Assembly (NCBI GenBank): GCA_951406725.2 | Contig: OX597833.1 | Coordinates: 28,148,001 to 28,212,000, forward strand | Direction of reading: 5' to 3' | Length of the DNA: 64,000 nt | Origin: Octopus vulgaris | Taxonomy: Eukaryota | Part shown: piece by piece, positions 6,867-24,900 of the stretch | Layout of the letters: the number at the start of each line of letters is the position of its first letter | Position numbering within the stretch: the first letter of the stretch is position 1 | Notes under the pieces: generated by a model | The model's database searches: none | Seen by the model: only the letters and a program-made list of their open reading frames with translations | What the model was told of the DNA's origin: nothing | Position numbers and translations under genes: made by a program

Positions 6867-9800
6867 GTGTGTGTGCGTGTGTGTGTGTACACACACATCA
6901 TCATTGTCATCATCAGTCAGCATCTGTTTCCCTGCTGGCATGGATTAGACAGTTTGACTGGAACTGGTAAGCTGGAGAGCTGCACCAGGTTCCAATCTCA
7001 TTTGATGTGGTTTCTATGGCTGGATGCCCTTCCTAATGCCAACCACTCCAAGAGTGTAATGAGTGCTTTTTACATGCCACCAGCATGGTTGCCTGTAATG
7101 TGACACTGGCAATAGCCATGACTACATACATACACACATACATACATACATACATACATACATACACACATACATACATACATACTTACACACACACACA
7201 CACATATATATCTATTATATAAAATCTGTTCTGTCTGTCTATGCTGAATTTTCATTAAATATACATATACATACATATACATTGTTGCAAAATGTGGCCT
7301 CCTGACACCAACACAGCTCCAACAGTCGTGTAAACAGTTAGAAAACCACAGGCCTGTCCAACAAACCAACTTGCTTAGAGAGGAAGAAGTAATCGTACCT
7401 GGCTGGATGTCTTGTGTTCTTCATCACTTGGCATCACTTTGACTGGTCACATCAAATCTTTACACCAACTGTCTTCATTGCAAAGTATGGCCAAATTACT
7501 TAGAAGTTCACTTTGCAGCCATGAGGTCTCAGGTTTAATCTTTCTGCTTGACACCTTGAGCAAATGTTTTCTTTTAGTCTTAGACTGCCCTATCCTTGTG
7601 AATGAAAAAAAGAAGTCACAAACCATATAGAAACCCACTGGATGGATTGTGCCAGCATTTCAAAAAGAAACAGCCTTGTCACACACTGTCACATTGAATT
7701 TGCTTGGGAATGATATAAGAACACTCTTGTCTGTGGAATGGTCAGCCAGTTATACACTTATTCAGGATCGAGTAATTCGATTGATTGAAAAACTGAATTG
7801 TCATCATCAAACAATCAAGTTCCACCATTCTTGTTCCATGCATTCAGAAACTCATTGTGGGATTAGAAACACCTTACTTACCATTAGAAATTCTTGTTTT
7901 CAGTATCTCATTCTATTCTTGCTCGTTTGAACCATTTGGTTGGTGTTTTGCAAGTCTTACATATATTGTTCTGTGACACCCATGTTTCTAGGGATGAATT
8001 ATTCCAACCCCAAAGAATCCTTCTCCACACATGGCTATGATGCCCCTCCATTACACTTGCTCATGATGAGAGATACACATATTGTGAGCCACTAAGGGAT
8101 ATGTTTGACTGGTTGTTTGTTCCTTCTTGAGCCATGCCTGGTTCATAAGGGCCGGTTTCCCGGTTTCCTTGGCATATAGGTTCCCCACCTGGATGGGACG
8201 CCGGTCCATCACAGGTGAGCTGCAAAATGCAGGTAGAAAGAGCGAGAGAAAGTTGTGGCGAAAGAGTTAGCTGAAGTTCGCCATTACCTTCTGCCAGAGT
8301 CGCGTGGAGCTTAGGTGTTTCGCTCATAAACACACACATCGCATGGTCTGAGATTCGAACCCACGATCCCTCAACCGTGAGTCCACTGCTCTAACCACTA
8401 GGCTATGTGCCTCTACATTTGACTGGTTACGGTCAAGCAAATGACAAGCAAATCTGTAGTATTGAGCAGAAGATTTGCTGTAGCTCTTCTTTTTCATCAA
8501 GACAAAACATGTAAATGTTAACACTGCCAATCATTTAAGATTAGATGCTATGAGAGTCACTGCATGGTATTGTTATTATTATTATTATTTAAGGTGGCGA
8601 GCTAGCAGAATCGTCAGCATGCTTAGCGGCATTTCATCCATTGCTACATTCTGAGTTCAAATTCCACCAAGGTTGACTTTGCCTTTCATCCTTTCAGGGT
8701 CAGTTAAATAAGTACCAGTTATGCACTGGGGTCGATGTAATCGACTTAATCCCTTCACTCAAATTTCAGGCCTTGTAGCTACAGTAGAAAGGTTTGTTAT
8801 TATTATTATTACTACTATTATTGTTATTATATTCAAATTCTGCCGAGGTTGACTTTGTCTTTCATCCTTTCATGGTCAATAAATTAAGTGCCAGTGAAAC
8901 ACTACAATTAATATAATCAACTAGTCCCCTCCCCAAAACTTTCAGTAGAAAGGATTACTATTATTATCATTATTATTATTTGAACTGGCAGAATCGTTAG
9001 TACACTGGAGAAAATGCTTAGCAGCATTTCATTTGTCTCTACATTCTGAGTTCAAATTCTGCCACGGCCAACTTTGCCTTTCATCCCTTCAAGGTCGATA
9101 AAATAAGTACCAGTTGTTTACTGGGATCAATGAAATCAAATAGGCCCCTCCCACAAAATAACTATGTCCCATGAGGTTTCTACATTCTCAATTCCAATCT
9201 CATTGAGAGCAACTTTGCATTTCATCTTCCTAGTTTCAACAAATACCAGTCAGACAATGGTATTGAAACTGCCACCCAGTGTAAGAAATATGATTGCACG
9301 TGGTCGCATTGTGTAGGGAATACGATCGCACGTGGTCATATTCTTAACGAATTATTATAAGCCATAAATACAATGCAGTACCAAAAGAACATAGGTGAAT
9401 TGACGACAAGCCGTTCCACTGTGTGCGTGCAACACGTGTTTGTGTTTGTGTGTGTGACAGATACAATAAGGATGAAAGCGTGTGACATAGTAGGTACAGA
9501 GCATAGAGTTAATGATGGAAATTGATTTACTGTTCATGAGGCACACGAAGTGTAAGCGTTCAATATCAAGTTGTTGTGTCTCGGAGCTGAGATTAGTTGA
9601 ATCACTTGTTGTGCTTATCTTTCTCTTGATATAGATATTCTTTCAGATATATATACTGCAACTGTTTTTCCGTGGTGAGATTTTCACCTAACAGCATGCG
9701 TTGAATTTGTAGTATCTTGTGTACAAGTTAAATCTTCGTAGATAGAGACGATGTTGGCGATGACGTTATGTCTGTCGCTTGGTTTACTATAGCGTCTTCA

Positions 9801-12800
9801 TATCATGTTTTGCTTGGTTATTTTTCTTTTGATAGACATTCTTTCAGATATATATATACTGCAACTGTTTTTCCGTGGTGAAATTTTCACACTAACAGTA
9901 TGAGTTGAATCTGTGAAGTTGGTGTGTACATGTCTGAAGTGGACGATGGTGATGGCGACTTGAAGTTGGTACAATGATGGTGACGACGGCGGCGGAGATA
10001 GAAGGCTTTCTGTGGTGAGTGTACATTAGCGTCATCGTGACTGATCGTCTGTCGCTGTGACTGGAACATGTTGAGTAGCTCTGTGGTCAGAGGTTTAGTC
10101 CTCATAAGGACTAGAAACCAAAGACGAAAGTGTCTGAGAACACTCCCTTATATACAAGTAAGGTGGCTCAAACGAGCTTACGAAATGGGACCTTAACCAA
10201 AGGCCGTGATTGGTTGGCTTTGGCCAGTGGCACGAAATAAGTAGAGAGACAGACCGCGCTTAGATGCCAACCAATCAAAATAGTGGACACAACAACGTTA
10301 AACTAGCCAAAGATGTTTGTAATCTCAAACGAGATCATTCTTAATATTTCTCTCAAACGGTGAAGATAGCAATGAAGAAAACAATATTGCTACAGATAGC
10401 CTCTTGCCAGACGTTTTGTCATAGACAAAACGACGATAAAATTGAAGCAAAGATGATATTCGAACGGTTGGTCAATTTAACTGGCACTAAGTCACCTATG
10501 TGGAATGTTCGAGTGAACATAAAATGGCTGCGTAGTGAATACGAATGGCTGCGTATTTGATCACGTCGGGTCACCAGTGTAAGAAATAATAATGGCTGCG
10601 TGTTTGATCACGTCGGGGTCACCAGTGTAAGAAATATGATTGCACGTGGTCGCATTGTGTACGGAATACGAATGGCTGCGTGTTTGAAAACGGCGGGTCA
10701 CCAGTGTAGGTAATAATAATGGCTGCGTGTTTGAAAACGGCGGGTCACCAGTGTATAACGAATTTTCTTCGCAAAATTGTAACAATTTTTCTGGCGAGAG
10801 GCTGATGTAGCGTGGCAGTTTCAGCCATTTTGAAATATGACTATAGCGATTTCTAATATCTTCACTATTTGAAAGGCAAGGCAGAAATGATCTCGTTTGA
10901 GGTTACAGCCATCTTTGGCTAACTTGTTCCTGTTGTAAACACTAACCTGATTGGTTGACACGTGACGTGATTTGTCTCCACTTATTTTCGCGCCAGTGTC
11001 CCGAAACAACCAATCACGGCCTTTGGTTAAGATTCCATTTCTGAGGCTCGTTTGAGCCACCCAACCGGTATATAAAGGAGTGTTTTCAGACACTTTTTGT
11101 CTTTGGTTCCAGTTCTTCTAAGAACTAACTTTACACCACAGCGCTACTCAACCAAGCGATATACGATTGTTCCTGCTGCCACTAGCTACGACGCTAATGT
11201 ACACAATCACAGAAAGCCTACTATCTTCGCCGTCTCCACCATCATGTATCAACTTCAAGTCGTTTCCAACGTTTTCGCCATACGAACAGTAAACCAATTT
11301 CCATTATATATTCTATGTTCTGTACCCTTTTATGCCAAACGCATCCACTCTGATTGTTCTGTCACACACACGAACACACAGACACAAACACGTGTTGCAT
11401 GCGCACACGCGTGTTAACGCTTACGAACTCCTAACATTGACACGGTTGTAAAATAAATAATATTTATCTCTCCACAGCAAGACTTGTCGTCGATTCACTT
11501 ATGTTCTGTTGTTACTGCATGTTTTTATGGATGTAATAATTCGTTAAGAATATGACCACGTGCGATCGTATTCCCTACACAATGCGACCACGTGCATTCA
11601 TATTGCTTACACTGGTGACCCCGACGTGATCATTTCTGCCTTGCCTTTCAAATAGTGAAGATATTAGAAATCGCTATAGTCATATTTCAAAATGGCTGAA
11701 ACTGCCACGCTACAGTATCAATTAAGTCTACAACACCCTGATTAGAAAGTCTATAGCCTTATTAGAAATTCCATCAACATTATTAATTAGGACGTACATT
11801 TTTTACACTTTTCCTTGGTTCTGTCATTGGACTGTGGTGATTCTGGAGCATCATGATGAAGAATTTTTAATCGATCATATCTGGCCCTTATTTTATCAAT
11901 CTCTTTGTTGAAAAGCTAAGTTATGGAGCATGACCAATGAAAGCTGTTTTTCAAGTAATACCATAATACCAGTGTTAACACAAACACATTAACAGACAAA
12001 CACATAAATAATACCACATTGGTGGATAAAAATTCTTTACTTATGGGTTAAGACTTCCATTGGTTTCATGGAAGAGAGAAATCCCTTTACAGCTATCAAG
12101 CTTGCTGCATGGAACATTGGTGTTCAATTCCATTTTGATTCAGATCCCTTAGCATTTAAACCAGTTATATCCAGCAAAATTATTCTACTGATTTTATGTT
12201 CAAACTCACCATATGCAACCTCTCATACTTACCCTCCAAGATGGAGATGAGCAATAATGCTCCATGAAGCAAGCTTGATAATTGGTAAGGGATTTCTCTC
12301 TTAACATAAAACCAATGGTAGCCTTAACCCATAAATAGATACATATACACTCTTTATTTGTGGATTAACGGTGCTACCAATGGTTTCATGTGGAAATCAC
12401 TGCTAGCAGTGTTAATCCACAAATAAAGAATATTTATCCATCAAATGCAGTGTTGGGCAAGCATTCTCATTATTCCACACTATCACACAGATACACACAC
12501 ACACACACACACTCACACACACATCATGAGTTTCTACCAATTTCACTCACAAAGCATTGCTCAGCTCAAGGATAGGGAACACATGGTCCAAGGTGCCACA
12601 CAGTGGGACAGAATCTGGTTGCAAAGTGAACTTCTTGACTGCACAACCACACATATGATTATGTTCTGTTTTCAAATCTTATTATGATAGATTTTGTCTT
12701 CTACACCATATTTGACATGAATAAAATAAGTATCAATAATATACAGAGCTAAAGAGCTGGCAGAACTGTTAGCCTGCTGGGTAAAATGCTTGGTGACATT

Positions 12801-21961: not shown

Positions 21962-24900
21962 TTGTGACTTTGCTTCTGGGCATGGATCTGAGTTACTTTC
22001 AATGTAGAGTGGGTTGTATGTATACAGCTACACTCGAGTAAGTTTCCATGTAGGGTGAGACATAAATACATGTGTGAGACTTTTATAAAAATAGTAACGT
22101 GATCCTATTCTTAATAATATATTGACAATAGAATACATGCAGCGGCAATACACATAAGTTTGGAATGACAACAAGATTTCTTTTTAAGATATATACATTA
22201 TTTATTTTACATATTTTACAATCATGTTTGATGTTGGAAGTTTGTAAGTGTTCGCATGTTTTTGTGTCTGTGTGTTCGTTAGGCGTAAAAAGGTACTGAC
22301 CAGTGAATTGACGATGGGATTTGATTCACAGTTAATGTTGTTGGTATCGGCTTGGCAACAGGTAATAACAGATGGCTTAAGGTAGTTCTTAGAAGAAACT
22401 AGAACCCAAGAACAGATAATTGATTTACCATTTATGAGGTACACTATAAGAGTCCCATATCAAGATATTGCATGTCGCAGTTGAGATTAATTGAATCACT
22501 CATTGTGTTTATCTTTCTCTTGATATGAATATACTTCCAGACATGTTACTGTAGCCGTTTTCTTCGTGGCGAGAATTTCACCTAACCGCTATAGTTGAAT
22601 CTGTAGTTGTCTCATGTACAATTTAATCTTCGATGTTTGTCGATTGGTTCTTGCTGCTTCTTCATTATATGTTCTGCTTGGTTATTTTTCTCTAGTTATA
22701 GATATCTTGTAACCGTTTTCTTCATGGTGATTTTTCACACTAACAGTATGAGGGGTATCTGTAACATCTTGTATTAATGGTGGTCGCCTGCCTCGAAACT
22801 GGAACTTGGTCGAGTATTCTGTGTGGTCAGAGACTTAGTTCTTAAAAGAACTAAAAACCTAAGACGAGCTGTGTGTGGTCAGAGGTTCGCCCTTAGAAGG
22901 ACTGGAAACCTAAGACGAATATTTTTCTGAGAAACCTTGTTTTATAAGCTTCACCCGGCTCCCAGTGAACTTCAGAAATGGAAAGCTGTGATTGGCTGCT
23001 TGGACTATGGCGCGAAAATAAGTCGAGACATTTTGCGCCAAGTTATAACCAGCGGTGCGAGCGTAGTAGAGACCAACGTGTCAGCCATTCGAATTAGTGT
23101 TTACATCAATGTTGAACTAGCCAAAGCTGTTTGTAATCTCGACCGAGGTCATTCTATATACTCTTCTCAAACAGTGAAGATAGCACTGAGAGACGATATT
23201 GCTACACTTTCAATGTAAAGGAGGATCATGTGTGGGCAGCAGAAGCCCATGCTTGAGTGTGTGAGTATAAGTGACTTTCAATGTAGAATGGATTATTGTT
23301 TTTGTGGTGTTATGGGTTGTGATGATCTATGTGGTGTTGGTGGAGAGGATTGCAGATGAGGTAAATGGAAGTGAAGACTGCAGGGCTGGCGGAAGAGCCA
23401 CATGCATAGGCAAAAGCATGATGAGAGTTGGATGAGAGACAGCAGCATGCAAGGACACGTTTTTTCTCGACAGTGATTGCTCATCCCGCCTAGGTCAACA
23501 GGTAAGGTCTCTGTATTTCTTTCTCCCTTTTGCTTCTTTTTCTGTTGTCTTTTTCTTTCATCACACTACAAGCTATTTCGGCCCATAAAAATAACAAGCA
23601 AACAAAAAAAAAAACAATGATGAGTGTAGTCTGTATTTCGAATTATATGGTCAAACTATTTTGCGGTGAAATGGATGTAGTCGCTTGGTTGAAGAAGTTG
23701 AAGCTGGTTGCAAAACTCCATAACTTAGCGAGTTTTATACCACTGTACCTAGATGGTTCGGCGTTGGCGCTATACCTAGAAAGGGATCAACTTAGCGTGG
23801 AAAAAATAGAAATCCGTTTGATGGAGGCCTTTGCAGAAGGAATGTTTGAAGCATATGCTCGCCTGGGAAAAGCAAAGTGGACCAGCGAACAGGCCAACAT
23901 ATTTGCAAACAAACTCAGAAGATTAGCTAAACTGGTGGGATTTGAGGCAGAATCACTGGACCGAATGGTTAGTTAGTGTTTGTGACTGGCTTTCCTGACC
24001 ACATGTTGGTTGAGTTGCAAAAACTGCCGAACATTAACTCTATGGTGATGACAGACATTATATCTTAGGCTTGCATGCTAGTTTCGTGTTGCAGGATGAC
24101 ACCGGTAGCAGCAACTGCAATAGCGAAAAGTGGCCAACCAAGGAGTAGCAGAGAGGGGTCAAACAAGGAACATGTGCGACCATTCAAAGGACAGTGTTTC
24201 CGGTGTCAGGGCACGCACATGGGGGTGGACAGAACATTGTTCTTAGCCAGGAAAGTCGACTCCAATGTAACAAGATGAAGCATGCAGAGAGTGGTCAGCA
24301 GCTGTGACTGGTGCCAGTCCATCGACCCTGCTCCGGACGTACATGAGGTAGGAAGTGTTCCAGTGGACCACAACTGGAAACGACTGGCAGGGGACATAAC
24401 ACACTACCGGCAGGGGACATACCTCTCAATGGTTGACTGTGGACCAGGACAGTTGGCCATATGGAGGGAGATGAAGACAGGGACTGCAGAGGAAATGAGA
24501 TATTTAGTTAAGTACTAAATGAGATATTCCTGGAACAAGGCCCCATGGATGAGCTGCTTCTGGATAATGGCACTGCATTTCATTCGGAGGTGCTGAAAGA
24601 AATATTTGATGGGTGGCAGGTCAACCGCTTCTTCAGGGCAGCATACCAGCCAAGTGGTAATGGGGTGGAGGAAAAGCATCATCGTATCATCAAGGCCATG
24701 GCAGAGAGGGGCCACATTTCACCAATCAAGGCCGTATTCTGGTACAATATGTCGCCCAGGTCGGGACAGGCTGAGAAGTCGGTACCACACAGGGCAATAT
24801 TCAGGTACGAGTGGAGGCATCCGTGTACTGCATCAATGCGACCCAGGGTAGAGGAAGAGCATGCTTTCGTGCAGATCAGGGAAGAAGTTTGGGTAAAACC

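Follow-up and report, generated by a model that had tools for sequence, protein, structure and literature searches.

Two head-to-head LTRs within one target-site duplication in Octopus vulgaris, a probable integrated product of aberrant reverse transcription

Anatomy of the block and its insertion site

A block composed of two head-to-head long terminal repeats (LTRs), 2,451 bp long and lying inside one copy of an interspersed repeat, was analyzed in the genome of Octopus vulgaris. The window, that is, the whole stretch of 64,000 nucleotides considered here, is C20:28148001-28212000 of an assembly of 2.80 Gb in 227 contigs, and the block occupies window positions 9264-11714 between two copies of GTAT. 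It contains no coding part, and was examined by sequence reading, a repeat scan, and self-BLAST. We suggest that the block is probably a single integrase-mediated insertion of a multi-switch, partly snapped-back chimeric Ty3/Gypsy cDNA, with one part from an autonomous-type (A-type) element and the other from a short non-autonomous (M-type) element. The features of the locus are listed below in window coordinates; U3, R, and U5 denote the unique 3′, repeated, and unique 5′ parts of an LTR, PBS denotes the primer-binding site, and J1 (between the left 12-nt piece and LTR B), J2, and J3 are the internal junctions.

9177..9259, plus strand: left half of the target, a repeat resembling a short interspersed nuclear element (SINE), aligning with other copies in the window and at other loci
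9260..9263, no strand: GTAT, left copy of the 4-bp target-site duplication, by sequence reading
9264..9275, minus strand: 12-nt piece tgaaactgccac, the left terminus, equal to nt 7-18 of the A-type LTR start (reverse complement)
9276..9279, minus strand: ccag (CTGG on the minus strand), spacer C and the first 3 nt of a PBS, directly past the U5 end of LTR B
9280..10394, minus strand: LTR B, 1115 nt, TGTAGC...CTTACA, the LTR of a short non-autonomous M-type element
10395..10535, minus strand: purine tract and M-type internal region of ~125-140 nt (the stub), by genomic matches to M-type copies
10536..10755, minus strand: PBS array of four units (repeat families D3, D4, and D7; alignment to the host tRNA-Trp)
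10752..10755, no strand: junction J2, TGTA microhomology, where minus-strand M-type sequence meets plus-strand A-type internal sequence
10752..10805, plus strand: last 54 nt of the A-type internal region including its purine tract; the same 54 nt stand upstream of LTRs elsewhere
10806..11611, plus strand: LTR A, 806 nt, TGTAGC...CTTACA
11612..11630, plus strand: spacer C and an exact 18-nt PBS (11613-11630), the complement of the 3′-terminal 18 nt of host tRNA-Trp(CCA), the added CCA included
11628..11631, no strand: junction J3, GATC microhomology, containing the last base of the 18-nt PBS (11630)
11628..11714, minus strand: inverted copy of nt 1-87 of LTR A (the right cap), forming the right terminus ...GCTACA, 87/87 identical to 10806-10892
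11715..11718, no strand: GTAT, right copy of the target-site duplication, by sequence reading and repeat alignment
11719..11790, plus strand: right half of the SINE-like repeat, whose alignment resumes where the left flank stops

All parts of the composite listed by the first-pass annotation of this DNA are present at, or within 1-4 nt of, the positions it gave, including the polypurine-like tract upstream and the PBS downstream of the plus-strand LTR. One description has to be changed: the left 12-nt piece, called inverted there, has the same absolute orientation as the right cap and is hence direct relative to the adjacent minus-strand LTR. This piece is an exact match to nt 7-18 of LTR A and is mismatched to nt 7-18 of LTR B; the TGG that follows the spacer C of LTR B is a copy of the tRNA 3′ CCA, and altogether 16 extra nt stand between the left duplication and the end of LTR B. 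The right cap, identical to LTR A over its whole length, ends exactly at nt 1 of U3 (the figure of 91 nt and 99% given by the repeat tool counts four junction bases). The 12-nt exact match and the 87-nt exact inverted copy are far beyond chance, and coincidence is excluded. The termini of the block read 5′-TG...CA-3′: the left one is TG on the plus strand, that is, CA-3′ on the minus strand, and the right one is an intact U3 end.

The two LTRs are diverged in U3 and nearly identical at the U5 end, as had been noticed before: the last 82 nt are 98% alike (I3), the first ~85 nt differ, and the overall identity is 57%. Each is preceded by a purine tract and followed by PBS bases. The block thus lacks the layout of a provirus, in which the LTRs are direct, identical at insertion, and enclose the PBS and the purine tract. 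The order of purine tract, LTR, and PBS, common to both modules, is instead that of a reverse-transcription intermediate, and occurs in minus-strand DNA with the tRNA attached or in plus-strand strong-stop DNA. LTR B further holds an internal 203-nt tandem duplication (9612-9725 vs 9815-9930, ~85% identical, window 9612-9930). A Logan contig of run X16 jumps exactly 203 nt within this LTR (9679 to 9883), and presumably derives from a paralogous LTR without the duplication.

The bounding GTAT was proposed earlier to be a target-site duplication, and the alignment of the flanks bears this out. Joined through a single GTAT, the flanks align without gaps to seven other copies of the repeat; with both GTATs kept, every other copy needs a 4-nt gap, and with both removed, the site itself needs one of this length. 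Because the gap-free fit needs a single GTAT at the empty site, GTAT is a real 4-bp duplication. The alignment used 7 of the 11 collected repeat copies, L032, L033, L035, and L037 being left out (alignment lost after the first ~90 columns). Judged by it, the insertion neither deleted nor added target bases beyond the 4-bp duplication. Searches with the left and right flanks matched repeat interiors only, with no locus joining both, so the empty site is reconstructed from the repeat alignment. The target itself is the last of at least four diverged SINE-like copies that stand in tandem at window 8500-9263, spaced by 141-219 nt (families D1 and D2) with ATT-rich runs between them.

Four base pairs is the duplication length made by the LTR family of the block. 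Among the 12 LTRs that have host DNA on both sides, 10 show perfect 4-bp duplications and the other two match at three of four positions; for instance, the solo LTR at 22084-23206 is flanked by AAAG, in line with the 4-bp duplication already reported for it. A separate duplication at each LTR, named in the first-pass annotation as the sign of independent nested insertions, is seen at neither: the flanks inside the block are TATC/CTGG for LTR B and CTGA/CTGG for LTR A. Of its claim of a single integration, the single site is established, and a single event is very probable, given the contiguous repeat halves, the family-length duplication, and the lack of duplications at the individual LTRs.

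The same features bear on an origin by capture, in which cDNA fragments were end-joined into a double-strand break and GTAT arose by fill-in of a staggered break or by coincidence. The blunt J1 with its short templated 12-nt piece resembles filler DNA, and microhomology is present at both J2 and J3. We nevertheless regard this origin as quite improbable: the duplication has exactly the length made by the family integrase, both ends read TG...CA and the right one is an intact U3 terminus, no target sequence was lost, and exact 4-bp duplications surround the smaller parallel inserts described below, too.

Source elements and primer site

The minus-strand module of the block (PBS array - internal stub - purine tract - LTR B - CTGG) comes from a short non-autonomous M-type element, and the plus-strand module (54 nt - purine tract - LTR A - 18-nt PBS) from an autonomous-type element. 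LTR A is 96-97% identical to LTRs at five loci (L004, L005, L007, L010, and L012), and the 54-nt A-type stretch stands upstream of LTRs at L004, L006, L013, and L025, that is, at 4 of the 17 loci inspected. The A-type internal end is 89.8% identical to positions 5899-6107 of L077, which lie downstream of the integrase open reading frame (ORF), just before the 3′ LTR. This autonomous relative, located on C4, has LTRs of 824 nt that are 97.7% identical to each other, and encodes, in order, a DUF7041 gag-like ORF, one ORF with RVT_1 (E 5e-34), RT_RNaseH_2, and RT_RNaseH, and a following ORF with Integrase_H2C2 and rve. Having reverse transcriptase, RNase H, and integrase in this order with gag upstream, L077 is by its predicted domains a Ty3/Gypsy (Metaviridae) element, and its family is the source of the block parts. 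The other hallmarks agree: the LTRs have TG...CA ends, a tRNA PBS, and purine tracts GGCGAGAGGCTGA and GGCAAGAGGCTATC directly upstream, and the duplication has a fixed short length of 4 bp (GTAT at the block, ATTA at L079).

LTR B is ~90-92% identical to LTRs at L011, L022, and L058. The internal stub, as the first-pass annotation called it, is no leftover: a separate family of short non-autonomous elements has it as its normal internal region. The stub has 41 genomic matches, among them 99% identity over 139 nt at C20:24169702 and 98% at C3:117375093, and in the complete M-type element L058/L079 it stands between two LTRs together with one primer site and a purine tract, bounded by the duplication ATTA. 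The M-type module by itself belongs to a mobile non-autonomous family comparable to terminal-repeat retrotransposons in miniature (TRIM) and large retrotransposon derivatives (LARD). Both LTRs of L058/L079 have B-type starts, and the U3 of LTR B begins in the B-type manner, too. The right cap and the left 12-mer consist of A-type U3 sequence, whereas the start of the adjacent LTR B differs. Because complete M-type elements have B-type starts on both LTRs, the outer end of the block is not what remains of a normal M-type 5′ LTR.

A host gene for tRNA-Trp(CCA) was found in L083 with ARAGORN, and its 3′ 18 nt match the PBS of LTR A in 18 of 18 positions. Past these 18 nt, the family leader remains a copy of the tRNA-Trp T arm up to ~32 nt, the T loop differing by a 1-nt deletion and one substitution. 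The PBS array of the M-type module holds four copies of GGGTCACCAGTGTA, at 10568, 10616, 10695, and 10742 (family D7), and a 50-nt piece of U5 (10622-10671) is embedded in it. Each array unit consists of a U5 end, a tRNA-Trp PBS, and ~15 nt copied from the tRNA T arm. One or two units of U5 end, primer site, and leader are found in other M-type copies, and their number ranges from 1 to 4 across elements (window, L059, L060, and L079).

ARAGORN called no tRNA at L080 (C1:102115130) or L082 (C5:138577965), both with the tRNA-Trp 3′ pattern, and ~20 matches to this pattern are clustered at C6:58.38-58.67 Mb, which is probably a tRNA-Trp gene array. In a census of perfect PBSs, 22 of the 25 places belong to another tRNA-Trp-primed LTR family. 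Its 22 loci (e.g., L116-L120, C1:77631421, and C2:21332188) have the same TTACAC end, the same perfect tRNA-Trp PBS, and a conserved leader starting with TCTGGTCTAAAACC. The argument that a perfect PBS marks a fresh copy of the tRNA was dropped, since CpG decay of older copies explains the rarity of perfect sites equally well.

Junctions and the proposed pathway

At J2, the TGTA shared by the two modules is set in different sequences: A-type copies read ...ATATGTATAACGAATT..., and array units read ...CACCAGTGTA(A/G)G.... At J3, which lies within 1 nt of the end of the 18-nt PBS, the homology is GATC or, counted more broadly, 7 of 8 positions over ACGnGATC; the first 130 nt of LTR A contain a single GATC (nt 84-87). 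The J2 and J3 strings (22-mers) have no second occurrence in the genome at up to two mismatches, and a pattern with a non-A base after GATC has no match in the genome. The J1 string (12-mer - CCAG - LTR B) is likewise unique genome-wide, apart from one match with two mismatches at C5 (L055) without similarity to the block or to the LTRs. The counts from these junction searches are lower bounds, and by our own estimate ~2 chance matches are expected per search.

The first-pass annotation had left two explanations side by side, an aberrant multi-switch cDNA and a mobile non-autonomous family whose normal architecture would be two inverted LTRs, and had proposed to search the genome for the junctions, since several loci would indicate such a family. 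The block does have integrase-competent ends and a duplication, as a member of such a family would, but the three strings identify no other locus of this structure, J2 and J3 being confined to the block and the only extra match of J1 lacking LTR similarity, so there is no mobile family of this kind to be seen. We consider the inverted-LTR family extremely improbable. The aberrant cDNA fits the junctions and has parallels at other loci.

Three features argue for a reverse-transcription origin: the PBS after LTR A is exactly 18 nt long, with its last base inside the J3 window; the cap is identical to the start of LTR A and ends at U3 nt 1, which is the 5′ end of plus-strand strong-stop DNA; and LTR B is followed by C and TGG, the copy of the tRNA CCA. 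The inverted copy starts at the 3′ end of the strong-stop DNA (J3 holds PBS nt 18) and runs to U3 nt 1, the form expected of self-primed strong-stop DNA, and this suggests that the cap arose during reverse transcription.

From the observed anatomy, duplication, and uniqueness of the junctions, we infer the following pathway. Minus-strand DNA of the non-autonomous element would have started from the tRNA primer and reached the PBS by way of U5, U3, the purine tract, and the stub. At TGTA, synthesis could then have changed templates to the minus-strand DNA of an autonomous-type element packaged in the same particle, entering it 54 nt upstream of the purine tract, and continued in the plus sense through U3-R-U5 and 18 nt of the tRNA-Trp primer, with a predicted stall at the modified A58. 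The U3 start of plus-strand strong-stop DNA offers a single GATC, with which the stalled GAT-3′ end may have paired; copying up to the 5′ end of that DNA, U3 nt 1, would leave the block with its 87-nt inverted cap and with an end normal for integrase. The opposite strand would have been extended beyond the U5 of LTR B into 3 nt of the tRNA and then into 12 nt of U3 (nt 7-18), stopping at a CA that was possibly used by integrase as a cryptic end. The plus strand of the block would then be minus-strand DNA of the non-autonomous element, later extended in the plus sense. We suggest that the block is likely a record of reverse-transcription failure and not a new mobile element, and it is without evident host function.

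Two further candidate origins were rejected. For autointegration, non-cognate internal sequence would have to adjoin an LTR terminus with a 4-bp repeat, which is nowhere the case, and the junction of a 2-LTR circle cannot account for U3 nt 7-18 at both ends of the block.

Parallel inserts, rival origins, and known systems

Five other scrambled inserts were examined in the same genome.

C13:81714217-81714319 (L115 2518-2620): 103 bp, duplication CTAT, ends TGTAAG...TTTACA
C3:174333540-174333874 (L114 2541-2875): 335 bp, duplication GCCT, ends TGTAAG...GCTACA
C6 near 7679168 (reverse complement of L126, 1272-1770): 499 bp, duplication ACAG, ends TGTAAG...GCTACA
C25:31924846-31925243 (L028 1503-1900): 398 bp, duplication AAAC, ends TGTAGC...GCTACA
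C2:71867446-71871612 (L078 547-4713): ~4.2 kb, duplication TTAG, normal direct outer LTRs

All five have 4-bp duplications and CA-3′ ends, and each of the four small ones combines a perfect 4-bp duplication and TG...CA ends with a snap-back structure. The C13 insert contains ~64 nt of antisense U5, a snap-back at TCATATT, the U5 end with an exact 18-nt PBS, and 14 nt of antisense LTR leading to a cryptic CA. The C3 insert has the same hairpin and 18-nt PBS, followed by antisense U3 from ~255 to 1; the C6 insert repeats the C3 plan with a 234-nt hairpin and an identical junction string after the 18-nt PBS. In these three of the four small inserts, the exact 18-nt PBS is immediately followed by inverted LTR sequence, the junction lying exactly after PBS nt 18 or in a microhomology window that ends there (3 of 3). 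In the C25 insert, U3 starts of the A-type and B-type form a near-perfect palindrome that has a U3 terminus at either end. In the C2 insert, the 5′ LTR is cut near nt 460-500 and is followed by two antisense blocks (gag, leader, PBS, and 51 nt of U5) and then by sense integrase; one junction shows a 3-nt microhomology, a minus-strand ORF is gag-like, and a plus-strand ORF codes for integrase.

We tentatively propose that these inserts represent a recurrent genomic class of dead-end intermediates inserted by integrase, namely strong-stop DNAs with a stall after exactly 18 nt of tRNA-Trp and a snap-back or jump involving 0-7 nt of homology, which entered the genome by way of a normal U3 or U5 end or of a cryptic CA. 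As a part of this proposal, and with the same reserve, the block could be the largest and the only two-element example within the class.

A stepwise chromosomal origin would start from a normal insertion at GTAT, followed by one or more nested insertions, an inversion between the opposed LTRs, and microhomology-mediated deletions. Microhomologies like those of J2 and J3 are also typical of DNA repair and of template switching in replication, the two junctions are not independently dated, and ectopic recombination occurs among LTR families: according to Sabot and Schulman (2007), most complex LTR arrangements of Triticeae arose by recombination between separate insertions. Still, this course requires a minimum of two insertions and three deletions or inversions, every one of them confined to the interior of the original 4-bp duplication, and no internal duplication is left around either LTR. 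Further, no single normal element owns both ends, the right one being A-type and the left element M-type with a B-type start; the 16 extra nt separate the left duplication from the LTR B end; PBS nt 18 and U3 nt 1 are the exact positions of the junction and of the cap end, respectively; and comparable scrambling is confined between duplications at four other loci. This origin therefore seems unlikely.

Several points weigh against the chimeric cDNA insertion. The order of the switches cannot be proved from the finished product, and repair at the DNA level also uses microhomology. J1 (CTGG|GTGG, between the 12-mer and LTR B) is without microhomology, and the origin of the 12-nt left piece is the weakest step of the pathway. 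The A58 stop is carried over from work on retroviruses, and the modification of tRNA-Trp is putative here. Part of the four-unit PBS array is inherited family variation, so not all of it is evidence for the event, and the C3 and C6 inserts, in which the same junction string recurs, possibly did not arise independently. An empty allele or orthologous empty site was not observed, and none among the 15 of 54 contig joints listed skips 9264-11718. Finally, J2 and J3 are bridged by no listed short-read contig at 99% likeness, the assembly being their only source, and the raw-read run X17 placed 0 reads on the region (~3 in 100 of the run sampled).

The last of these points would also suit an assembly artefact, that is, a wrong internal order produced by mis-joining of LTR repeats, J2 and J3 both lying within repeats. 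However, the left host junction and J1 are bridged by contigs of X1 (9119-9305, 0 differences) and X14 (9096-9325, 1 difference), and the right host junction by an X14 contig (11669-12000); at that end, X1, X4, and X16 contigs enter the insert by just 28 nt, short of the 31 nt that the tool requires. In total, contigs from runs under four different organism labels match the host junctions, J1, and parts of the array with 0-2 differences, so the insert is common to whatever these labels denote. At 90% likeness the region is swamped by contigs of paralogous LTRs; at 99%, the bins holding J2 and J3 have non-zero depth in three of three contig runs. In addition, the structure is no perfect palindrome of the kind made by sequencing chimeras, and comparable structures exist at other loci. 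We find an artefact very improbable.

Inverted terminal repeats are characteristic of DIRS elements, which encode a tyrosine recombinase, contain an internal complementary region, and are not known to make a target duplication. The terminal repeats of the block are inverted, too; unlike DIRS, its family has a tRNA primer site, purine tracts, and a 4-bp duplication, and the autonomous relative encodes a DDE integrase (rve), though no search for a recombinase was made.

Sabot and Schulman 2007 (BMC Genomics 8:247) described duplication-bounded "complex" insertions of Triticeae, rice, and maize, which they attributed to abnormal template switching between co-packaged RNAs followed by ordinary insertion by integrase. 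As in these complexes, LTR and internal sequences of more than one element stand within one family-length duplication at the block. The plant complexes are collinear (LTR-internal-LTR-internal-LTR) with near-identical outer LTRs, whereas the block has head-to-head modules, ends formed by 87-nt and 12-nt LTR pieces, and one cryptic CA. Instead of a third direct LTR, two complete internal regions, and similar outer LTRs, it has two opposed LTRs and internal parts of 54 nt and ~360 nt. That paper presents no inverted case, and the word "inverted" is absent from it.

Self-primed strong-stop DNA (1997 work summarised in PMC4668388) folds back and is extended on DNA, giving inverted repeats; it is a dead end suppressed by nucleocapsid protein. 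The cap resembles its product, in that a stalled strong-stop DNA would have folded back and copied DNA. Self-priming was described in vitro, for minus-strand strong-stop DNA with the TAR (trans-activation response) hairpin, whereas the snap-back proposed for the block would follow a plus-sense stop in the tRNA and use 3-4 nt of microhomology, with the product integrated in the germ line. For HIV-1, Fukuda et al. 2021 (Nucleic Acids Research) reported that plus-strand strong-stop synthesis ends at the 1-methyladenosine at position 58 (m1A58) of tRNA-Lys3, after 18 nt. The primer copy ends after exactly 18 nt in the window and at three parallel loci, as in the retroviral stop; the tRNA-Trp here is known from its gene sequence, and its modification is putative. 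A cryptic CA end is plausible in the light of Friedl et al. 2010, who found that overexpressed Ty1 integrase inserted non-Ty fragments with 5-bp duplications if these ended in TG...CA, that is, terminal dinucleotides suffice for insertion with a duplication of family length. This case differs in host (yeast), element type (Copia), overexpression of the integrase, and the 5-bp length of the duplication.

Template switching and strong-stop self-priming are known mainly from retroviral in vitro work and from collinear plant insertions. In the open-access literature searched, we found no description of integrated duplication-bounded snap-back strong-stop DNAs or of head-to-head LTR composites, which is no proof of absence. 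Here the finished products lie in the germ line, and since each is enclosed by an exact duplication of the target, their junctions reveal the molecular steps. Provided that the class is real, the error modes of a Ty3/Gypsy reverse transcriptase would be measurable in vivo by a census of the whole genome, and the inserts would be a germ-line record of the failures of this enzyme, including the tRNA A58 stop outside vertebrate retroviruses. They would also show natural acceptance of cryptic CA ends by integrase, and would warn annotators that "head-to-head LTR" or "LTR with polypurine tract and PBS" structures may have an origin other than nested insertion or mis-assembly.

Immediately to the right of the insertion, window 12038-12442 contains a cluster of inverted repeats (I6, I8, and I13) with arms of 33-66 nt that are 80-88% complementary. 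This cluster looks like a small foldback element or one similar to miniature inverted-repeat transposable elements (MITE-like).

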